64,000 nucleotides of DNA, from NCBI RefSeq assembly GCF_036507355.1, contig NZ_AP027877.1; one strand, 5' to 3'. Under the pieces are notes generated by a model. The model was not told the origin of the DNA, did no database searches, and worked only from the letters and a program-made list of their open reading frames with translations. Shown piece after piece: positions 13,106 through 46,590 of this stretch. The stretch is from Escherichia coli. GTDB lineage: Bacteria > Pseudomonadota > Gammaproteobacteria > Enterobacterales > Enterobacteriaceae. The translations under genes were made by a program, and so were the position numbers. The stretch's first letter is position 1; every line of letters begins with the position of its first letter.

Positions 13106-13143
13106 AAGCCAACCTTAAGAACTTAAGGTTGGCTTAATTTTGC
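13106..13143 (+). terminator. Rho-independent terminator after adiC
   Basis: Hairpin aagccaaccttaag-aa-cttaaggttggctt followed by T-rich tract. Confidence 0.65.
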
Positions 13144-13184: not shown

Positions 13185-14828
13185 ATGTTGAAGCGCCTAC
13201 TAAAAAGACCCTCTTTGAATTTACTCGCCTGGCTATTGTTGGCCGCTTTTTATATCTCTATCTGCCTGAATATTGCCTTTTTTAAACAGGTGTTGCAGGC
13301 GCTGCCGCTGGACTCGCTGCATAACGTACTGGTTTTCTTGTCGATGCCGGTCGTCGCCTTCAGCGTGATTAATATTGTCCTGACACTAAGCTCTTTCTTA
13401 TGGCTTAATCGACCGCTGGCCTGCCTGTTTATTCTGGTTGGCGCGGCTGCACAATATTTCATAATGACTTACGGCATCGTCATCGACCGCTCGATGATTG
13501 CCAATATTATTGATACCACTCCGGCAGAAAGTTATGCGCTGATGACACCGCAAATGTTATTAACGCTGGGATTCAGCGGCGTGCTTGCTGCGCTGATTGC
13601 CTGCTGGATAAAAATCAAACCTGCCACCTCGCGTCTGCGCAGTGTTCTTTTCCGTGGAGCCAATATTCTGGTTTCTGTACTGCTGATTTTGCTGGTCGCC
13701 GCACTATTTTATAAAGACTACGCCTCGTTGTTCCGCAACAACAAAGAGCTGGTGAAGTCCTTAAGCCCCTCTAACAGCATTGTTGCCAGCTGGTCATGGT
13801 ACTCCCATCAGCGACTGGCAAATCTGCCGCTGGTGCGAATTGGTGAAGACGCGCACCGCAACCCGTTAATGCAGAACGAAAAACGTAAAAATTTGACCAT
13901 CCTGATTGTCGGCGAAACCTCGCGGGCGGAGAACTTCTCCCTCAACGGCTACCCGCGTGAAACTAACCCGCGGCTGGCGAAAGATAACGTGGTCTATTTC
14001 CCTAATACCGCATCTTGCGGCACGGCAACGGCAGTTTCAGTACCGTGCATGTTCTCGGATATGCCGCGAGAACACTACAAAGAAGAGCTGGCACAGCACC
14101 AGGAAGGCGTGCTGGATATCATTCAGCGAGCGGGCATCAACGTGCTGTGGAATGACAACGATGGTGGCTGTAAAGGTGCCTGCGACCGCGTGCCTCACCA
14201 GAACGTCACCGCGCTGAATCTGCCTGGTCAGTGCATCAACGGCGAATGCTATGACGAAGTGCTGTTCCACGGGCTGGAAGAGTACATCAATAACCTGCAG
14301 GGTGATGGCGTGATTGTCTTACACACCATCGGCAGCCACGGTCCGACCTATTACAACCGCTATCCGCCGCAGTTCAGGAAATTTACCCCAACCTGCGACA
14401 CCAATGAGATCCAGACCTGTACCAAAGAGCAACTGGTGAACACTTACGACAACACGCTGGTCTACGTCGACTATATTGTTGATAAAGCGATTAATCTGCT
14501 GAAAGAACATCAGGATAAATTTACCACCAGCCTGGTTTATCTTTCTGACCACGGTGAATCGTTAGGCGAAAATGGCATCTATCTGCACGGTCTGCCTTAT
14601 GCCATCGCCCCGGATAGCCAAAAACAGGTGCCAATGCTGCTGTGGCTGTCGGAGAATTATCAAAAACGGTATCAGGTTGACCAGAACTGCCTGCAAAAAC
14701 AGGCGCAAACACAACACTATTCACAAGACAATTTATTCTCCACGCTATTGGGATTAACTGGCGTTGAGACGAAGTATTACCAGGCTGCGGATGATATTCT
14801 GCAAACTTGCAGGAGAGTGAGTGAATGA
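13185..14828 (+). CDS. eptA: Lipid A phosphoethanolamine transferase EptA (PmrC)
   Basis: ORF 13140..14828; start placed at [14 protein letters not shown], giving 547 aa; sulfatase-like domain; stop overlaps basR start. Confidence 0.93.
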
Positions 14829-15493
14829 AAATTCTGATTGTTGAAGACGATACGCTGTTATTGCAGGGACTGATTCTGGCGGCGCAAACCGAAGGCTACG
14901 CGTGCGATGGCGTGACAACCGCGCGGATGGCGGAACAAAGCCTTGAGGCAGGTCATTACAGCCTGGTGGTACTGGATTTAGGGTTACCCGACGAAGATGG
15001 ACTGCATTTTCTCGCCCGTATCCGGCAGAAAAAATATACCCTGCCGGTACTGATCCTCACCGCTCGCGATACGCTGACCGACAAAATCGCCGGGCTGGAT
15101 GTCGGTGCCGATGACTATCTGGTGAAGCCTTTTGCGCTGGAAGAGTTACACGCCCGTATCCGCGCCCTGCTACGACGCCATAATAATCAGGGCGAAAGTG
15201 AGCTGATTGTTGGCAATCTGACGCTGAACATGGGTCGCCGTCAGGTATGGATGGGCGGTGAAGAGTTGATTCTGACGCCCAAAGAATATGCTCTGCTGTC
15301 ACGGTTAATGCTCAAAGCAGGCAGTCCGGTGCATCGGGAAATTCTCTACAACGACATCTATAACTGGGACAATGAACCCTCGACCAACACCCTGGAAGTG
15401 CATATCCACAATCTGCGCGACAAAGTGGGCAAAGCCCGTATCCGCACCGTGCGCGGCTTTGGCTATATGCTGGTCGCAAATGAGGAAAACTAA
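14825..15493 (+). CDS. basR: Response regulator BasR (PmrA), OmpR family
   Basis: 222-aa ORF; receiver domain plus winged helix; 4-bp overlap with eptA. Confidence 0.95.
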
Positions 15494-15502
15494 TTGAATC
15501 TG

Positions 15503-16594
15503 ATGCGTTTTCTGCGCCGACCAATATCGCTGCGCCAACGGCTGATATTGACCATCGGGGCCATTTTGTTGGTGTTTGAGCTGATCAGCGTCTTCTGGCT
15601 ATGGCATGAAAGTACCGAGCAGATTCAGCTGTTTGAGCAGGCGCTACGCGACAATCGCAACAACGATCGCCACATCATGCGTGAGATCCGCGAGGCGGTC
15701 GCCAGCCTGATTGTCCCCGGCGTCTTTATGGTCAGCCTGACGCTATTTATCTGCTATCAGGCGGTACGCCGCATCACCCGCCCGCTGGCGGAGCTGCAAA
15801 AAGAGCTGGAAGCGCGCACCGCCGACAACTTAACGCCCATTGCCATTCACAGCGCCACCCTCGAAATCGAAGCGGTGGTTTCGGCGTTGAACGATCTGGT
15901 CAGTCGCCTGACCAGCACGCTGGATAACGAAAGGTTATTTACCGCTGACGTCGCGCACGAACTGCGAACGCCACTGGCGGGGGTGCGTTTGCATCTGGAA
16001 CTGCTGGCGAAAACGCATCACATTGATGTAGCACCGTTAGTGGCACGGCTTGATCAGATGATGGAGAGCGTCTCCCAGCTGCTGCAACTGGCGCGTGCCG
16101 GACAGTCATTTTCTTCCGGTAATTATCAACATGTAAAACTGCTGGAAGATGTCATTCTCCCCTCGTATGACGAACTCAGTACCATGCTCGACCAGCGCCA
16201 GCAAACCCTGCTATTGCCAGAGAGCGCCGCCGACATCACCGTTCAGGGTGATGCAACCCTGCTGCGGATGTTATTGCGAAATCTGGTAGAAAATGCCCAT
16301 CGTTACAGCCCGCAAGGCAGCAACATTATGATTAAGCTGCAAGAAGATGGCGGAGCGGTCATGGCCGTTGAAGATGAAGGACCGGGTATTGATGAGAGTA
16401 AATGCGGGGAGTTGAGTAAAGCGTTTGTACGAATGGACAGCCGTTATGGCGGGATTGGTCTGGGGTTAAGTATTGTCAGCCGCATTACACAGTTGCATCA
16501 CGGGCAGTTTTTCCTGCAAAACCGGCAAGAGACTTCTGGCACGCGCGCCTGGATACGGCTGAAGAAAGATCAGTACGTGGCAAACCAGATATAA
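15503..16594 (+). CDS. basS: Sensor histidine kinase BasS (PmrB)
   Basis: ORF begins at a TTG at 15494; ATG at 15503 (MRFLRRPISLRQ) gives 363 aa; HAMP/HisKA/HATPase architecture. Confidence 0.93.
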   Translation: MRFLRRPISLRQRLILTIGAILLVFELISVFWLWHESTEQIQLFEQALRDNRNNDRHIMREIREAVASLIVPGVFMVSLTLFICYQAVRRITRPLAELQKELEARTADNLTPIAIHSATLEIEAVVSALNDLVSRLTSTLDNERLFTADVAHELRTPLAGVRLHLELLAKTHHIDVAPLVARLDQMMESVSQLLQLARAGQSFSSGNYQHVKLLEDVILPSYDELSTMLDQRQQTLLLPESAADITVQGDATLLRMLLRNLVENAHRYSPQGSNIMIKLQEDGGAVMAVEDEGPGIDESKCGELSKAFVRMDSRYGGIGLGLSIVSRITQLHHGQFFLQNRQETSGTRAWIRLKKDQYVANQI

Positions 16595-16659
16595 AGAAAG
16601 CTGCTGACCACCAGCACGCTGAACACGGTAGTTAAACTTTCATAAACACGGTTTTTCAT
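16570..16659 (-). CDS. pmrR: Small membrane protein PmrR (29 aa), antisense to the 3' end of basS
   Basis: Reverse strand translates to MKNRVYESLTTVFSVLVVSSFLYIWFATY*; not in the ORF track because it is below the size cutoff; overlaps the last 25 bp of basS. Confidence 0.85.
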   Translation of the reverse strand: MKNRVYESLTTVFSVLVVSSFLYIWFATY

Positions 16660-16773
16660 TGCACTCTCCTCCGTTAACCTGGAGGAGAGTATGCGCGTCA
16701 GAGATTAAGTGAACCTTAAGAGTTCAATTGTTGGTCTGATAAGACAGCGTCACATCAGGCCATCCGTTTCAGC

Positions 16774-18276
16774 TTATTCATCAATTCGCGGATGTTGCTG
16801 CACCAGGCGGGTACGTTTCGCCTGCAAATCGGCAATCTCGTGGTCAATATCATCGATTTTCTGCTCGATATTATCGTAATGCTCGACGAGAATTTCCTTC
16901 GCTTCCTGTATATCTGACGCCGCCGGTGTTGCACCTTTCAACGGACGATTTGCCGTCTCTTTCATGGTTACGCCGGTGATTAAACCAACCACCGCCACTA
17001 CCATCAGGTAATAGGCTGGCATCATCAGATTCTGCGAGCTTTCGACCAGCCAGGCCGCCAGTGTTGGCGTCAGACCGGCAACCAGCACCGAAATATTAAA
17101 TGCCGCCGCCAGCGCGCTGTAACGGATATGCGTCGGGAACATCGCTGGCAAGGTAGAAGCCATAACGCCCGTAAAGCAGTTAAGGATCACCGCCAGCATC
17201 AGTAACCCGGCAAAAATCAGGCCGATGACGTTACTGTTAATCAGAATAAACGCCGGGATCGCCAACACAAACAGGGCAACACTACCAAGTAGCACAAACG
17301 GACGACGGCCAAAACGGTCACTCAGCAAGCCCATCACCGGCTGGACAAACAGCATACCGATCATAATGGCGATAATAATCAGCACCCCGTGGTCTTCGGA
17401 GTAATGCAGGTTATGCGACAAATAACTCGGCATATAGGTCAGCAACATGTAGTAAGTCACGTTGGTGGCAATTACCAGACCAATACATGTCAACAGGCTG
17501 CGCCAGTATTTAGTGGCAATCTCTTTAAACGAGACTTTCGGGCCATCCTGCAAACCTTCGCGGTCGCCCTGTTCCAGTTTTTCAACATGCTGCTGGAACG
17601 CCGGAGTTTCTTCCAGCGCATGGCGCAGGTAAAGCCCGATAATCCCTAACGGCAGAGCAATAAAGAACGGAATACGCCAGCCCCAGTCGAGGAAGTTCGC
17701 TTCGCCGACAATGGTCGAAATTAACACCACCACGCCCGCACCCAGCACAAACCCGGCAATAGAACCGAAGTCCAGCCAGCTGCCCATAAAGCCACGTTTA
17801 CGGTCAGGGGAGTATTCCGCAACAAATATCGACGCCCCGGTATATTCACCGCCGACCGAGAAACCTTGTGCCATCTTACAGATCAACAGCAGAATCGGTG
17901 CCCAAATACCAATCGTGTCGTAGGACGGTATTAAGCCAATACAGAACGTACTGATCGACATAATCACAATAGTGATAGCGAGGATCTTCTGGCGACCATA
18001 TTTATCGCCCAACATACCAAAGAAGAGCCCGCCAAGCGGTCGAATCAGAAAGGGAACGGAGAACGTGGCAAGTGCAGCAACCATCTGCACGCTGGGGTCA
18101 GCCCCCGGGAAAAAAACTTTACCTAATGCGTAAGCAACAAAACCATAAACACCAAAATCGAACCATTCCATTGCATTACCCAGTGATGCTGCGGTAATGG
18201 CTTTACGCAGTTTACCGTCATCAATAATGGTGACATCACGAAGGGTAATCGGTTTTACTTTTTTCCTTTTCAGCAT
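16774..18276 (-). CDS. proP: Proline/glycine betaine:proton symporter ProP (MFS)
   Basis: ORF 16774..18309; start placed at MLKRKKVKPITLRDV, giving 500 aa; C-terminal coiled coil. Confidence 0.93.
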   Translation of the reverse strand: MLKRKKVKPITLRDVTIIDDGKLRKAITAASLGNAMEWFDFGVYGFVAYALGKVFFPGADPSVQMVAALATFSVPFLIRPLGGLFFGMLGDKYGRQKILAITIVIMSISTFCIGLIPSYDTIGIWAPILLLICKMAQGFSVGGEYTGASIFVAEYSPDRKRGFMGSWLDFGSIAGFVLGAGVVVLISTIVGEANFLDWGWRIPFFIALPLGIIGLYLRHALEETPAFQQHVEKLEQGDREGLQDGPKVSFKEIATKYWRSLLTCIGLVIATNVTYYMLLTYMPSYLSHNLHYSEDHGVLIIIAIMIGMLFVQPVMGLLSDRFGRRPFVLLGSVALFVLAIPAFILINSNVIGLIFAGLLMLAVILNCFTGVMASTLPAMFPTHIRYSALAAAFNISVLVAGLTPTLAAWLVESSQNLMMPAYYLMVVAVVGLITGVTMKETANRPLKGATPAASDIQEAKEILVEHYDNIEQKIDDIDHEIADLQAKRTRLVQQHPRIDE

Positions 18277-18539
18277 AGCTTTCCTCGCAGAGTTGGCCCA
18301 TTTCCGCAAACGCCAGAAAAATCAGCGCGACGGCCGCAAAAGGGGAGCGGGAATTGCAGGATGCAATCTCTGTAACAAGCGTAGCGGGTTTGCTTACACC
18401 CTCCGGTTAAGGAATGTACAATCAAACCAGTTGACGCCTGAATTGGGCAGTTAATGACCTTTTTACCCTACCAGCGTTTAAATTTGTGATCAACTTCACA
18501 CATGAATTTCGTTTAGGACTCATTGATGTAACTGATTAT

Positions 18540-19418
18540 TTACACTAAATTTACAGAGAAGATTTCCTCGAGCATTGCCCCCGCCAGACGCTGCGCTGAA
18601 CAGAGTCGTGGCATCCCCAGCGCGACAGTTTGCCAGCGTTGGGTCACTGACCAGCAAACGGGTTGTTTATCTGCCGTGGTCCACTTTCCCAGCCAACTTA
18701 AAAAATCAGCATGATCCCCGCCCGTCGGAACGGTCGAAGAGGCAAACCACTGATGGTAATAGTGACGCGTGGTCGGGGCCGCATTGATACTCTCTGCCAG
18801 ATGTTGTGTCGCTTTCACGCGCAAATCACCCAGCAACAACGCCACCGCTTGCGGGCTTCCCAGACGGCAGGCATCGCCAAATGCCCCCCAACGCAACTCT
18901 TCGAGAACGATAAAACAGCGCCCAGGCAACGACCAGGCGTTATACGCCCCAGCACGCCAGCGGGTAAAAATTTGCTCGCTCTGTTCACCTGCCTGCACCA
19001 GTAGGCCCCGTTGCGTTAACGCCTTTTCCTTCCAGCGACAACGGGCTGAAAACCACTCATACAAGGCGGCAATTTGCTGGGGGAGCTCCGGGAAAGCAGA
19101 GTGCTGGCGGTGATCCATTTTTTGCAGCAGCGCCAGATGTTGCGCGATCTGCGTCAGTGCCAGATGACCGGGATCCAGCATCGACGCCAGTTTTTCCACC
19201 AATGTCAAACGCAGGCTAAGCGGCGCATTTAACATTCCGCCGTTCGCCCATGTCTGAAGCTGCACGCGCGCAAGAAGTTCCTGCATCAGTCGTTCACGAA
19301 ACTGCTGCTGATGGGCTTGTGGAAGGCGGGCATCATCGCCCTGCGCCAGATCCACTAAAAAGCGCGGATGAACCGACTCCAGCACGCGACCGGGGCCGTC
19401 CAGTAACGTCTTGGTCAA
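18540..19418 (-). CDS. yjcZ: Uncharacterised protein YjcZ, partner of CrfC
   Basis: 292-aa ORF; 4-bp overlap with upstream crfC (operon). Confidence 0.85.
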   Translation of the reverse strand: MTKTLLDGPGRVLESVHPRFLVDLAQGDDARLPQAHQQQFRERLMQELLARVQLQTWANGGMLNAPLSLRLTLVEKLASMLDPGHLALTQIAQHLALLQKMDHRQHSAFPELPQQIAALYEWFSARCRWKEKALTQRGLLVQAGEQSEQIFTRWRAGAYNAWSLPGRCFIVLEELRWGAFGDACRLGSPQAVALLLGDLRVKATQHLAESINAAPTTRHYYHQWFASSTVPTGGDHADFLSWLGKWTTADKQPVCWSVTQRWQTVALGMPRLCSAQRLAGAMLEEIFSVNLV

Positions 19419-21643
19419 TATCGTTCTGCCGTGAAAAGTGTTTGAATATCATCGCGTAACAGCTGGGCGTCGGTGTAAATCCAGCCGTGAGTCATCACAG
19501 TCTGCTGCAATTGCTGCTGCATCAGCCTGACCACCGATTCATTTTGTTGACGCAGAGCCAGACTTTCGCGTAAACGCGTCTGTAATTCCGTCAAACATGA
19601 AGCGAACTCAGCGAAAAAAGTATTCATGCCTGCCGTAACAGATTCATCGACCTGCTCTGCCAGAACTTTAGCCATTTGTTGGCAATAGAGATCGACTTCT
19701 GCGCTTAATGCTCGTTGCAACACACTGTAATCAACCGTTTCTGTCGGGGATTTCTCATTTCCCCGTCCCCAGTCGGGCTGATTCAACCAGCGCGAAAAAG
19801 TCTCACGCACAACGCCTAAACGCGTGCTCTGCTCGTCCGTTGCTTCCTGGCGCGAAATGACTTCACTGAACAGCTGGCGAGTGTTGAAGTGGGGAACTGC
19901 GCCGTGAAAAACAGGAAAATGAAACCCAGGACGAAACCCTGACTCGCTCAATTCCATTTTGATTTGTTGCTCAATGGGGCGAATAACATCGGTTAACACC
20001 CGGCAAAGGGTGGATTCCAGCTCGGCAAAACGCAGCGTAAAGTCGCGACTGATGGTGTTCTGCGCCGTCTGTAACAGTGTCTCACAGCGGGTACGAATCT
20101 CGCTTAACGGCTCCGAATCATCCTGAAACAACGCGGCTAACTGCGCATTCAGCGCATCTTGCTGTTGACGCAGAAAGAGGTTGGCGGAGGTCAGGGCCAG
20201 CTCGATTTCATGTTTAATCTCGCCGCTCACCTGCGCCTGATTGAGTTGCAATAGCTGCAAACTTTCTTCGACCTGATGGATATTTTGCCGCAATTGTTCA
20301 CAAGCGACGTTTAACCCGTGCGCACGAAAATCCAGGTATTCCCGCGCCTGCTGCGCGTAATTCAACAGTTTATGCGCGGCAGATCGCAGAGCATACAACG
20401 AGGCGTTAGCATAAGCGGCATGAAGCAACGCCTGAATTGGCTGGGCGAACAGCGAATCTTCCCACAACTGATCGGCAGCATGACGAATATGTTCGAGGTC
20501 CGCCAGATCGGCATGACGCCAGCGCCTGCCGAGCGCGGCATGGGCAAAATCTTCCACCCAGCGTTGTTGCTCTGGCGCTGGTAACTTACCGTTGTTGGCT
20601 AACTCATGGCGCGCCCGATTCGCCAGGTAGCCCCACATCGACGACACCGGAAATATCTGCTGTGGCGTAATACAGCCTTTCATCAGCGTTCCGGAAATCA
20701 GTGCCCGCACCTGGTCGGCGTCGTCACTGTTACGATCCTGTTGATCGAACTTATTGACCAGCACATACAGCGGCACCGATTGCCCCACCGCCAAAATCGC
20801 CTCACGGACCTCTTCATCGGAGATCGATTTCAGTTGCGTATAATCCAGCACCGCCAGTACCGCCGAGGCGCGTGCCAGCTGCTGGTTAAGCATTTTTTGC
20901 AGATGCGGTTGCCCGGCTTCATTTGGCCCGGGGGTATCCAGTAACGTCAACTGACCGGGATAACTCTCCAGCCCCGCCAGATGGACAAACTCCACTTCAA
21001 TCACGGGAATATGCTCAATGGCGGCGTAAGCAGAAAAAGGAAAATCGACGTCCAGCGCCTTCGCCAGTCGCACCAAATCATTCAAACTTTTCAGACAATG
21101 AAAAATAGGCTGGGCACCCAGATAATATTTTTCGAAAGCGACGCCATTTTCGATCCGCTGCATAAGCGCACGCATATCTTTATCTATTTCCAGCACATCG
21201 GTCAGATGCTTAATATCGCAATCACGCAGGCGCTGTTGTAATTTTTGAATTAAACAATCGATTGGCGCGACATGTGAAAAATGCAGTACCGGTTCCTTTT
21301 GCCCGGGCGTATGGCGAATAAGCGTCGGCAGGGCAGTCATTGGGCGATTGCGATTAGGCAGAACCTCCGTACCAACAATGGCATTAATGGTGGTTGATTT
21401 CCCTGCTTTCATAGTACCGACAATCGCCAGCACCATTTCCAGTTGGGAAATTTTACGCAACTCATTATTCAGCATCGCGTGACGCTCGGCGATATTAGGC
21501 TGACTCCAGGGTAAAGCCAGTTGTGGCGCATCGTCTCCGGGTACAGAGAGAGGCATTTTTTCCAGTAACTGCAACTGTTGGCGAGAAAGCTGTAACAGGC
21601 GTTCAGCCTCCTGACTTAACTCATACAGGGTCTGTGTGTACAT
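19415..21643 (-). CDS. crfC: Dynamin-like GTPase CrfC (YjdA)
   Basis: 742-aa ORF; P-loop GTMKAGKST near N-terminus; long coiled-coil-rich C-terminal part. Confidence 0.9.
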   Translation of the reverse strand: MYTQTLYELSQEAERLLQLSRQQLQLLEKMPLSVPGDDAPQLALPWSQPNIAERHAMLNNELRKISQLEMVLAIVGTMKAGKSTTINAIVGTEVLPNRNRPMTALPTLIRHTPGQKEPVLHFSHVAPIDCLIQKLQQRLRDCDIKHLTDVLEIDKDMRALMQRIENGVAFEKYYLGAQPIFHCLKSLNDLVRLAKALDVDFPFSAYAAIEHIPVIEVEFVHLAGLESYPGQLTLLDTPGPNEAGQPHLQKMLNQQLARASAVLAVLDYTQLKSISDEEVREAILAVGQSVPLYVLVNKFDQQDRNSDDADQVRALISGTLMKGCITPQQIFPVSSMWGYLANRARHELANNGKLPAPEQQRWVEDFAHAALGRRWRHADLADLEHIRHAADQLWEDSLFAQPIQALLHAAYANASLYALRSAAHKLLNYAQQAREYLDFRAHGLNVACEQLRQNIHQVEESLQLLQLNQAQVSGEIKHEIELALTSANLFLRQQQDALNAQLAALFQDDSEPLSEIRTRCETLLQTAQNTISRDFTLRFAELESTLCRVLTDVIRPIEQQIKMELSESGFRPGFHFPVFHGAVPHFNTRQLFSEVISRQEATDEQSTRLGVVRETFSRWLNQPDWGRGNEKSPTETVDYSVLQRALSAEVDLYCQQMAKVLAEQVDESVTAGMNTFFAEFASCLTELQTRLRESLALRQQNESVVRLMQQQLQQTVMTHGWIYTDAQLLRDDIQTLFTAERY

Positions 21644-25016: not shown

Positions 25017-25104
25017 GTAGGTCGGATAAGACGCCCCGGCGTCGCATCCGACAATGTGCAGGCGTTGATGCCGGATGCGGTGCAAGCACCTTATCCGGCC
25101 TACA
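25017..25104. repeat. REP pair (BIME) inside the phn operon, between phnD and phnE
   Basis: gtaggtcggataagacgc...gatgccggatgcggtg...ccttatccggcctaca. Confidence 0.85.
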
Positions 25105-43499: not shown

Positions 43500-45647
43500 A
43501 TGAAAAAAGTCGTCACGGTTTGCCCCTATTGCGCATCAGGTTGCAAAATCAACCTGGTCGTCGATAACGGCAAAATCGTCCGGGCGGAGGCAGCGCAGGG
43601 GAAAACCAACCAGGGTACCCTGTGTCTGAAGGGTTATTATGGCTGGGATTTCATTAACGATACCCAGATCCTGACCCCGCGCCTGAAAACCCCCATGATC
43701 CGTCGCCAGCGTGGCGGCAAACTCGAACCTGTTTCCTGGGATGAGGCACTGAATTACGTTGCCGAGCGCCTGAGCGCCATCAAAGAGAAGTACGGTCCGG
43801 ATGCCATCCAGACGACCGGCTCCTCGCGTGGTACGGGTAACGAAACCAACTATGTAATGCAAAAATTTGCGCGCGCCGTTATTGGTACCAATAACGTTGA
43901 CTGCTGCGCTCGTGTCTGACACGGCCCATCGGTTGCAGGTCTGCACCAATCGGTCGGTAATGGCGCAATGAGCAATGCTATTAACGAAATTGATAATACA
44001 GATTTAGTGTTCGTTTTCGGGTACAACCCGGCGGATTCCCACCCAATCGTAGCGAATCACGTAATTAACGCTAAACGTAACGGGGCGAAAATTATCGTCT
44101 GCGATCCGCGCAAAATTGAAACCGCGCGCATTGCTGACATGCACATTGCACTGAAAAACGGCTCGAACATCGCGCTGTTGAATGCGATGGGCCATGTCAT
44201 TATTGAAGAAAATCTGTACGACAAAGCGTTCGTCGCTTCACGTACAGAAGGCTTTGAAGAGTATCGTAAAATCGTTGAAGGCTACACGCCGGAGTCGGTT
44301 GAAGATATCACCGGCGTCAGCGCCAGTGAGATTCGTCAGGCGGCGCGGATGTATGCCCAGGCGAAAAGCGCCGCCATCCTGTGGGGCATGGGTGTAACCC
44401 AGTTCTACCAGGGCGTGGAAACCGTGCGTTCTCTGACCAGCCTCGCGATGCTGACCGGTAACCTCGGTAAGCCGCATGCGGGTGTAAACCCGGTTCGTGG
44501 TCAGAACAACGTGCAGGGTGCCTGCGATATGGGCGCGCTGCCGGATACGTATCCGGGATACCAGTACGTAAAAGATCCGGCTAACCGCGAGAAATTCGCC
44601 AAAGCCTGGGGCGTGGAAAGCCTGCCTGCTCATACCGGTTATCGCATCAGCGAGCTGCCGCACCGTGCAGCGCATGGCGAAGTGCGTGCCGCGTACATTA
44701 TGGGCGAAGATCCGCTGCAAACTGACGCGGAGCTGTCGGCAGTACGTAAAGCCTTTGAAGATCTGGAACTGGTTATCGTTCAGGACATCTTTATGACCAA
44801 AACCGCGTCGGCGGCGGATGTTATTTTACCGTCAACGTCGTGGGGCGAGCATGAAGGCGTGTTTACTGCGGCTGACCGTGGCTTCCAGCGTTTCTTCAAA
44901 GCAGTTGAACCGAAATGGGATCTGAAAACGGACTGGCAAATCATCAGTGAAATCGCCACCCGTATGGGTTATCCGATGCACTACAACAACACCCAGGAGA
45001 TCTGGGATGAGTTGCGTCATCTGTGCCCGGATTTCTACGGTGCGACTTACGAGAAAATGGGCGAACTGGGCTTCATTCAGTGGCCTTGCCGCGATACTTC
45101 AGATGCCGATCAGGGGACTTCTTATCTGTTTAAAGAGAAGTTTGATACCCCGAACGGTCTGGCGCAGTTCTTCACCTGCGACTGGGTAGCGCCAATCGAC
45201 AAACTCACCGACGAGTACCCGATGGTACTGTCAACGGTGCGTGAAGTTGGTCACTACTCTTGCCGTTCGATGACCGGTAACTGTGCGGCACTGGCGGCGC
45301 TGGCTGATGAACCTGGCTACGCACAAATCAATACCGAAGACGCCAAACGTCTGGGTATTGAAGATGAGGCATTGGTTTGGGTGCACTCGCGTAAAGGCAA
45401 AATTATCACCCGTGCGCAGGTCAGCGATCGTCCGAACAAAGGGGCGATTTACATGACCTACCAGTGGTGGATTGGTGCCTGTAACGAGCTGGTTACCGAA
45501 AACTTAAGCCCGATTACGAAAACGCCGGAATACAAATACTGCGCCGTGCGCGTCGAGCCGATCGCCGATCAGCGCGCCGCCGAGCAGTACGTGATTGACG
45601 AGTACAACAAGTTGAAAACTCGCCTGCGCGAAGCGGCACTGGCGTAA
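43500..45647 (+). CDS. fdhF: Formate dehydrogenase H (selenocysteine-containing molybdoenzyme)
   Basis: Two ORF-track pieces (43500..43919 and 43968..45647) are a single frame joined through the in-frame TGA at 43917..43919 (codon 140); 715 aa; N-terminal Fe-S Cys cluster. Confidence 0.95.
43917..43965 (+). other. UGA selenocysteine codon plus SECIS stem-loop
   Basis: In-frame TGA followed by cacggcccatcggttgcaggtctgcaccaatcggtcgg, which can form the SelB-binding hairpin. Confidence 0.8.
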
Positions 45648-46431: not shown

Positions 46432-46590
46432 GTAGGCCTGATAAGACGCGTTAAGCGTCGCATCAGGCGTTGATGTCGGATGCGGCGTAAACGCCTTATC
46501 CGACCTACAAAATCACGCTAAATCAGGCTATTGCGCTGTCTGACGTAGGCCTGATAAGACGCACCAGCGTCGCATCAGGCATCCACACAT
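46432..46590. repeat. BIME / REP cluster between yjcO and gltP
   Basis: At least four REP copies in alternating orientation (gtaggcctgataagacgc..., gtcggatgcggcg...). Confidence 0.85.

Follow-up and report, generated by a model that had tools for sequence, protein, structure and literature searches.

The pmrR gene at the 3' end of basS in Escherichia coli: a conserved 29-codon membrane-peptide gene with a predicted PmrA-box promoter and a conserved stem-loop

We analyzed a 64,000-nucleotide stretch of E. coli DNA (the window), in which a short reading frame on the minus strand runs into the 3' end of the sensor kinase gene basS (pmrB). A preliminary description of this DNA had claimed a 29-codon minus-strand open reading frame (ORF) here and had called it pmrR. 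The ORF listing gives exactly this ATG-started frame at 16570-16659, and its product, MKNRVYESLTTVFSVLVVSSFLYIWFATY (29 aa), is the peptide exactly as it had been quoted. The N-terminus of the peptide is basic and polar and is followed by one hydrophobic segment, the Kyte-Doolittle mean being 1.94 for residues 9-27 vs -1.43 for residues 1-8. The coding features are as follows.

16570-16659, minus strand: pmrR coding sequence, 29 codons plus a TGA stop (ORF, NCBIfam, identity with K-12 b4703)
15494-16594, plus strand: basS/pmrB sensor kinase gene, convergent to pmrR (ORF; RefSeq annotation of an identical stretch)
16570-16594, pmrR on minus and basS on plus: coding overlap of 25 bp (coordinates)

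The name given to the frame holds on three grounds: a match to an NCBIfam model, identity with the K-12 gene b4703, and the RefSeq annotation. The NCBIfam model NF033224 ('LpxT activity modulator PmrR') matched the peptide with 74.2 bits (E = 5e-21), relative to a curated cutoff of 30 bits, and the alignment is full length, with peptide residues 1-29 on profile positions 1-29. A Pfam scan of the peptide returned no relevant model and no meaningful match. The pmrR gene of K-12 MG1655 (4332116-4332205) shows no difference in the gene itself and encodes an identical peptide, UniProt PMRR_ECOLI is exactly the same sequence, and RefSeq also names the peptide 'LpxT activity modulator PmrR'. The promoter and stem-loop described below are identical to those of K-12 as well; from the proP stop to past the pmrR stop, the window and K-12 differ at four sites, a 3-nt indel and three substitutions, none of which falls in the gene, the promoter or the stem-loop (the indel and one substitution adjoin a REP-like element, and the other two substitutions lie 3' of the pmrR stop). 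A 401-bp query around the ORF is present in 5408 of 5426 complete E. coli genomes, and among the matches listed this stretch is annotated pmrB, pmrR and proP. In the identical stretch of strain ECNB21-M121, the gene order is adiC, eptA, basR, pmrB, pmrR (opposite strand), proP, rdcB and crfC.

Short frames are abundant here, with 82 ORFs of at least 20 aa overlapping 14000-19500 (5.5 kb), so a 29-codon ORF alone is not beyond chance, and pmrR might be a chance ORF without function. What raises it above chance is the NF033224 match, a PmrA box, a GGAGG site, and an ORF, box and spacing that are conserved together in 55 loci; the codon pattern, the homology between peptide profiles and the published experiments, all given below, also speak against a chance frame. 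Hence, we consider a functionless ORF to be already refuted and its probability negligible.

To sample other species, we used BasS as an anchor and collected 80 Enterobacterales loci, one genome per species, in which homologues were sought by local tblastn and ORF scans. In 55 of the 80 loci, the end of pmrB faces a convergent hydrophobic ORF that is 28-33 codons long (29-30 codons in 53 of them), so the check for conservation in related genomes, which the preliminary description had proposed, came out in favor of the gene. The loci with the ORF belong to Escherichia, Citrobacter, Klebsiella, Raoultella, Kluyvera, Kosakonia, Phytobacter, Trabulsiella, Pseudocitrobacter, Yokenella and Pluralibacter; further ones are labeled Enterobacter sp., Pantoea sp., Erwinia (MAG) and unnamed Enterobacteriaceae, and one is labeled Chryseobacterium sp. 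(probably a mislabeled record). Within the same 80 loci, the ORF is missing from Pectobacterium, Rahnella, Rouxiella, Ewingella and relatives, and also from a few loci where uvrB runs directly into pmrB.

An alignment of 29 representative peptides has an invariant Phe and an invariant Trp, and the C-termini are mostly Thr or Ser followed by Tyr or Phe. Variability is highest at codon position 3 (0.57), followed by position 1 (0.42) and position 2 (0.28). Comparing the profile of the Escherichia/Citrobacter peptides with that of the other (Klebsiella-type) peptides gave a match at 96.4% probability (E = 1e-9). Wherever it could be identified, the co-directional upstream gene is proP in Escherichia and Citrobacter and uvrB in nearly all others.

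PmrR homologues in Klebsiella and many other genera adjoin uvrB. When scored singly, seven of seven peptides from the uvrB context fell below the curated PmrR cutoff. The K. pneumoniae homologue has 30 aa (MQKINFREYLAVATALVIIVAFFHQWVLTF) and is unnamed ('hypothetical') in the public sources consulted.

Read on the minus strand, the region upstream of pmrR consists of the proP stop (16776-16774), a REP-like palindrome (about 16760-16734), a PmrA box, a 10-nt spacer, the hexamer CATACT, an inverted repeat, GCA and the ATG at 16659. The putative control elements are as follows.

16704-16720, minus strand: PmrA/BasR box CTTAAGGTTCACTTAAT (consensus match; spacing kept in 55 loci)
16688-16693, minus strand: presumptive -10 hexamer CATACT, 10 nt 3' of the PmrA box (conserved xAxACT)
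16663-16672, minus strand: ribosome-binding site GGAGGAGAGT with its GGAGG core at 16672-16668, 8 nt 5' of the ATG (sequence)
13122-13138, plus strand: second PmrA box, upstream of eptA-basRS (consensus match)

The preliminary description had suggested looking upstream of 16659 on the minus strand for a PmrA box, and had held that lack of a ribosome-binding site there would count against the gene; both elements are in place, the box at 16704-16720 and GGAGG before the ATG. We searched the whole 64-kb window with the consensus YTTAAK-N5-YTTAAK and found two matches relative to 0.05 expected. The two boxes have nearly the same geometry, with 46 nt from box end to start codon at eptA (start codon position from RefSeq) vs 44 nt at pmrR. 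In 55 of 55 homologous loci, a PmrA box that deviates from the consensus at no more than one position lies 58-63 nt upstream of the ATG, for which the chance is about 7.5e-5 per position. The homologues that have this box include those of Klebsiella pneumoniae, Raoultella, Kluyvera and Kosakonia.

In the alignment of the 55 loci, xAxACT is the sole conserved element between the box and the stem, with A2 invariant and both A4 and the CT at 5-6 conserved to at least 90%; the GG of the ribosome-binding core is invariant. Box and hexamer together form the predicted pmrR promoter, and transcription would start 7-8 nt 3' of the hexamer, at about 16680-16681, inside the loop of the stem-loop. PhoB, which is in the same regulator family as PmrA, likewise has its pho box 10 nt upstream of the -10 hexamer. 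A sigma-70 consensus scan found no promoter at pmrR, as is expected where an activator box takes the place of the -35 element. The accessible portion of a Cappable-seq supplement has no start-site entry near pmrR. In low Mg2+, a pmrR transcriptional reporter gave no significant response, yet RNA-seq showed induction (PMC11429745).

Published constructs with different lengths of DNA downstream of pmrB have boundaries at these elements. In the work of Xu et al., a mutant pmrB gave full colistin resistance when cloned with 126 bp of downstream DNA, partial resistance with 103 bp and none with 86 bp (PMC8004244). If the count begins at the basS stop, the 86-bp construct reaches 16680, the predicted start site, and so holds the ORF but not its promoter. 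The 103-bp construct reaches 16697 and gains the 5' arm of the stem-loop together with the -10 hexamer, and the 126-bp construct ends at 16720, exactly where the PmrA box ends. Xu et al. raised PmrR merely as a possibility (PMC8004244). The coincidence suggests that the boundaries of the 'pmrB 3'-downstream region' mapped the pmrR promoter, a reading to be taken together with the facts that the host kept its chromosomal pmrR and that pmrB mRNA levels also changed (PMC8004244).

The inverted repeat between the box and the ATG is a conserved stem-loop, with its parts as follows.

16663-16690, minus strand: conserved stem-loop (fold energy, covariation, published RNA 3' end)
16690-16681, minus strand: 5' arm ACTCTCCTCC
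16680-16673, minus strand: loop AGGTTAAC
16672-16663, minus strand: 3' arm GGAGGAGAGT

The last three bases of CATACT open the 5' arm, and the ribosome-binding site doubles as the 3' arm. The folding energy of the 96-nt stretch 16735-16640 is -27.8 kcal/mol (z = -3.8). When the 48 nt immediately upstream of the ATG are aligned across the 55 loci, the 12-pair helix has 81.9% of its cells paired vs 37-50% for registers slid by 1-3 columns, and seven of the 12 pairs have changes on both sides (compensatory, across genera); for example, one pair occurs as A-U (17), C-G (15), G-C (6) and G-U (6). None of 500 shuffles matched the observed covariation score, and RNAalifold independently recovered the core of the helix. 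On the pmrR strand, the core helix has 33 G-U cells vs 8 A-C cells, and this excess favors pmrR-sense RNA as the strand that folds.

Published RNA ends lie at this structure. A significant RNA 3' end was reported at K-12 4332112-4332120 with its peak at 4332117 (PMC10687069 supplement), which corresponds to 16663-16655 in the window and so reaches from the final stem base into the first pmrR codons. By the account of the same authors, SEnd-seq shows that transcription of the upstream gene ends inside pmrR (PMC10687069). We found a terminator-like site between the upstream gene and the stem-loop in only 9 of 50 loci, so read-through into the stem-loop is the rule; in several of these nine loci, the terminator-like T-tract is the PmrA box itself. 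A start inside the loop would give a PmrA-dependent mRNA that lacks the 5' arm, and therefore its ribosome-binding site would be free. We tentatively propose, with somewhat less than even confidence, that the stem-loop is an insulator: read-through RNA from proP or uvrB would hide the ribosome-binding site and end at the stem, and the PmrA-dependent start in the loop would bypass it.

Three other roles for structures in this region were considered and rejected. As a terminator of basS on the basS strand, the stem-loop lacks a T-tract after it on either strand, and the G-U bias favors pmrR-sense RNA. As a mere terminator of the upstream gene, it is at odds with one locus (L061) that keeps it despite a canonical uvrB terminator just upstream, and with the loci without pmrR, which are also without the stem-loop; no T-tract follows it here either. 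The third candidate lies inside the coding sequence.

16602-16616, minus strand: weak, doubtful terminator-like hairpin plus T-rich run within the pmrR coding sequence (consensus scan; 0.5 expected by chance in the region)

Only four E. coli-like Escherichia loci have this site; E. albertii, E. whittamii and the other genera lack it. Hence, it was rejected as a conserved part, whether as a proP terminator or as a translation-coupled switch.

The same stretch is also filed as an RNA family.

16563-16728, minus strand: Rfam RF02052 'STnc630' (181.8 bits, full length)

The gathering score of RF02052 is 55, its span in the window extends over the PmrA box, the stem-loop and all of the pmrR ORF, and the stem-loop belongs to its consensus structure. 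One locus is thus non-coding in Rfam (an sRNA gene) and coding in RefSeq. The full-length match (16728..16563) is what one would see if the locus made a non-coding sRNA, STnc630, perhaps a fragment of the proP 3' UTR, in which the ORF is incidental; such an RNA would fit the 3' end mapped to the stem base and the reported end of upstream transcription inside pmrR (PMC10687069), both of which mean that RNAs not encoding the full peptide exist here. However, the RF02052 consensus itself holds an intact 29-codon ORF that translates to a 29-aa PmrR-like peptide, and part of the Rfam span, the PmrA box, is promoter DNA. The frame stays open with coding-type substitutions in the 55 loci, including genera missed by the Rfam model, which detects the Escherichia and Citrobacter (proP-context) loci and none of the 12 uvrB-context loci scanned. 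In addition, translation has been detected, and complementation needs the start codon (PMC11429745). A family filed as non-coding, with no conserved translated frame, therefore covers the same DNA as a conserved ORF with a coding-type pattern and published translation (PMC11429745), along with its promoter box. Hence, an sRNA as the sole explanation is already largely refuted, and we regard it as very improbable; the peptide-coding gene is the reading we keep.

At its other end, pmrR overlaps basS. The preliminary description had placed this overlap in the final 25 bp of basS, which agrees with the ORF coordinates and with the same 25 bp annotated in K-12: the minus-strand span of pmrR starts at 16570 and basS ends at 16594 (TAA stop 16592-16594), so 16570-16594 is shared, and this takes in both stop codons. 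The third codon positions of both frames coincide in the overlap (16570, 16573 ... 16594), and hence the mutual constraint of the antisense frames is minimal. Across genera, the layout ranges from an 8-nt gap (-8) to a coding overlap of +57 bp: 25 bp in Escherichia, 22 in Klebsiella, 57 in Pseudocitrobacter, 42 in several Kosakonia, 4 in Citrobacter amalonaticus and Raoultella planticola/ornithinolytica, and none in Kluyvera genomosp., K. intermedia, K. cryocrescens and K. sichuanensis. Because its extent varies in this way, the coding overlap itself is incidental, and the 25 bp is lineage-specific. In all 55 loci, any gap between the stop codons of pmrR and pmrB is at most 8 nt, too short to fit a terminator, so overlap of the two transcripts is unavoidable at every one of these loci.

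That the pmrR and basS transcripts are mutually antisense had also been claimed, and two published data sets bear this out. A list of 165 convergent overlapping pairs, each seen in at least 50% of 58 MG1655 transcriptomes, includes pmrR-basS (PMC12288877, Table 1), and the 'primary' RNA 3' end of pmrR was mapped to K-12 4332305, 100 nt past its stop (PMC10687069 Supplementary Data 4). By collinearity, this end is 16470 in the window, well inside basS, which defines one more feature.

16470-16569, minus strand: published 3' UTR of the pmrR-strand transcript (PMC10687069, mapped by collinearity)

This 3' UTR and the 25-bp overlap together are antisense to the last ~125 nt of basS. The RNA past the pmrR stop (16600-16455) showed no significant structure (z = -1.3).

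With such an arrangement, the main role of the locus could be antisense damping of the basS mRNA from the PmrA-activated pmrR promoter, with the peptide secondary. The listing of the pair as convergent and overlapping (PMC12288877), the pmrR-strand 3' end 100 nt past the stop and inside basS (PMC10687069), the convergent layout with at most 8 nt between stops in 55 of 55 loci, and the variation of pmrB mRNA level with the length of cloned downstream DNA (PMC8004244) are all in keeping with it. However, pmrR on a plasmid restored the polymyxin resistance lost with the promoter box (PMC8129183, data not shown there), deleting lpxT reverses the polymyxin sensitivity (PMC8129183), and a copy of pmrR supplied in trans complements the Mg2+ growth defect only if its start codon is intact (PMC11429745). 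Moreover, pmrR rises together with basR and eptA, with no mutual exclusion (PMC13405929), and the extent of the coding overlap is not conserved. Hence, antisense damping as the main role is unlikely. Since both promoters have PmrA boxes and the genes are co-induced, the pair is not a simple either/or switch, and any antisense effect on basS would be damping and not mutual exclusion.

What remains is a peptide-coding gene, and published work on E. coli describes what it does. The study that describes pmrR as overlapping pmrB and under PmrA-box control found that, in a pmrA-constitutive background, loss of nothing but the pmrR PmrA box is enough to abolish resistance to polymyxin B and to bring back resistance to deoxycholate, and that deletion of lpxT reverses the polymyxin sensitivity of the box-deletion strain (PMC8129183). 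Hence, PmrA-dependent control and inhibition of LpxT are supported for E. coli by published genetics, in line with the preliminary description, which had PmrR as a PmrA-activated peptide feeding back on lipid A modification. Its claim of a membrane peptide stands too: in low Mg2+, Ribo-RET detected translation initiation at pmrR, and His-tagged PmrR fractionated with membranes on western blots (PMC11429745). Deleting pmrR causes a growth defect in low Mg2+, complementation of which is lost when the ATG is changed to TAA (PMC11429745). This growth defect is independent of lpxT (PMC11429745), so LpxT may not be the sole target of PmrR. In iron-adapted E. coli B, pmrR is co-induced with eptA, arn and basR (PMC13405929).

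The original biochemistry of PmrR and LpxT reportedly comes from Salmonella (Kato et al. 2012, as cited in later papers). In the Salmonella model, as cited in later papers, less Fe3+ is bound when the charge is reduced, and this is the feedback on PmrB. With the known PmrR of Salmonella enterica and E. coli, the gene in the window shares its position relative to the 3' end of basS/pmrB, the PmrA box, the length and the full-length match to the NCBIfam model.

Taken in order, the proposed mechanism would run as follows. Phosphorylated BasR/PmrA would bind the direct-repeat box at 16720-16704 (binding from the literature; box seen as sequence), which would replace the -35 element 10 nt before CATACT and direct a predicted start at about 16680. 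From the short leader with its strong GGAGG site, the peptide would be made and inserted in the membrane, as published for E. coli. PmrR would then inhibit LpxT, which otherwise adds a second phosphate at the 1-position of lipid A, so that this position would stay free and EptA could add phosphoethanolamine. Surface charge would go down, polymyxin resistance up and deoxycholate resistance down, in line with published E. coli genetics. At every pmrR locus, the pmrR and basS transcripts would run antisense to each other. We are highly confident that the locus is pmrR, a genuine gene whose product is a single-pass inner-membrane peptide of 29 residues that would act through this proposed PmrA-LpxT mechanism.

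Two known arrangements resemble this one. MgrB and MgtS are PhoP-induced small membrane peptides that act on PhoQ or MgtA. As there, a two-component system induces a peptide of ~30-50 residues with one membrane segment, and the peptide modulates a membrane protein and feeds back on signaling (PMC11429745); in contrast, pmrR uses PmrA, targets LpxT, has no sequence relationship to these peptides, and is convergent with and overlaps the kinase gene of its own system. The overlapping convergent transcripts of pmrR and basS are documented (PMC12288877) and in this resemble an excludon; unlike in an excludon, the two partners share one activator and rise together, so mutually exclusive expression is not expected.

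The original observation is thus confirmed and its interpretation supported; the finding is correct but ordinary. The gene is already catalogued, being annotated in K-12 and across RefSeq, and its role in polymyxin resistance is published, so with its role in lipid A modification also on record the finding itself matters little, and the additional observations may be of greater importance. The case does show that a functional gene related to resistance is overlooked when gene finders and six-frame displays apply length cutoffs. The homologues with PmrA boxes in Klebsiella pneumoniae and other species bear on studies of colistin resistance there. The stem-loop suggests how a tiny gene 3' of an unrelated gene is insulated from read-through; if the insulator model is true, the pmrR promoter would be nested in a terminator/insulator hairpin, and both PmrR synthesis and antisense transcription into basS would be strictly PmrA-dependent.

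In alignment A1 (the 48 nt preceding the pmrR ATG at the 55 loci that have a pmrR homologue), we found a conserved element in the pmrR leader:

16663-16690, minus strand: stem-loop that links the 3' end of the -10 hexamer with the Shine-Dalgarno sequence

The stem-loop is kept across genera with compensatory changes and is 81.9% paired across the 55 loci of A1; in the same alignment, 7 of its 12 pairs show two-sided changes, and 0 of 500 shuffles reached its score. The PmrA-dependent start is predicted to lie within its loop, and a published RNA 3' end (K-12 4332112-4332120; PMC10687069) corresponds to its base.

PmrR homologues were also found at loci where uvrB, rather than proP, lies upstream, as in Klebsiella pneumoniae (locus L021 of the 80 BasS-anchored loci):

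L021 4050-4142: PmrR homologue of 30 aa, between pmrB and uvrB

The other 30-aa homologues between pmrB and uvrB are at loci L008 and L010-L062, and the genera include Klebsiella, Raoultella, Kluyvera, Kosakonia, Phytobacter and Trabulsiella, among others. Their PmrA-box spacing and stem-loop are the same as at pmrR. Public sources name the K. pneumoniae homologue 'hypothetical/uncharacterised'. None of the uvrB-context peptides tested scored above 20 bits with the NCBIfam PmrR model (cutoff 30); despite these sub-cutoff scores, profile comparison gave 96.4% probability.

In several genera (L021, L033, L041, L042 and L044), a G+C-rich hairpin follows uvrB and the PmrA box comes immediately next; in K. 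pneumoniae, this junction reads AAGGCCGCGTTGCGGCCTT on the hairpin side and CTTAATGTTT on the box side. Since the box directly adjoins the hairpin, the T-rich PmrA box serves also as the terminator T-tract. Two further elements were found around pmrR in the window:

16602-16616, minus strand: terminator-like hairpin with a T-rich run, within the pmrR coding sequence
about 16734-16760: REP-like palindrome GCCTGATGTGACGCTGTCTTATCAGAC (minus-strand sequence), downstream of the proP stop and upstream of the pmrR promoter

Among the loci compared, the hairpin within pmrR is limited to four E. coli-like Escherichia loci and was not found in E. albertii, E. whittamii or other genera; proP transcripts are reported to terminate inside pmrR (PMC10687069). 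The sole indel relative to K-12 in the proP-pmrR region is at the edge of the REP-like palindrome.

We found pmrR to be absent from L067-L070 and L075-L079 (Rahnella, Serratia sp., Rouxiella, Edaphovirga and Chimaeribacter). At most of these loci, other small conserved ORFs lie 20-80 nt downstream of pmrB on the opposite strand: a Thr/Lys-rich type (...MKMTTKASKSFTNVN...), a very acidic type of 37-39 aa (MWDDYHREQLAEVE...DDDWDDDWDEDDDEGVEIIYER), or both.

At the other end of basS, the annotated start differs between PGAP records (TTG at 15494, plus strand, immediately 3' of the basR stop; 1101 nt) and K-12 (9 nt further downstream, the window ATG at 15503, plus strand; 1092 nt).

Rfam matches in the window were as follows:

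16563-16728, minus strand: RF02052 'STnc630', 181.8 bits
22398-22474, plus strand: naRNA4 (CssrE, repeat-derived)
25020-25100, minus strand: naRNA4 (CssrE, repeat-derived)
43912-43966, plus strand: SECIS_2 selenocysteine insertion element
46435-46505, minus strand: naRNA4 (CssrE, repeat-derived)

Rfam classes RF02052 as a non-coding sRNA. Its match takes in the entire pmrR ORF together with the stem-loop and PmrA box upstream of it, and its consensus itself encodes a 29-aa PmrR. Hence, Rfam lists the pmrR locus as non-coding and RefSeq lists it as coding.

Subclones of the 'pmrB 3'-downstream region' have been reported to confer no colistin resistance when ending at +86, partial resistance at +103 and full resistance at +126 (PMC8004244). 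Counted from the basS stop, these boundaries are window positions 16680, 16697 and 16720. We found that the first matches the start site predicted for pmrR, the second the point where the -10 hexamer and 5' arm end, and the third the final base of the PmrA box. Hence, these boundaries suggest that the element mapped in that study is the pmrR promoter.
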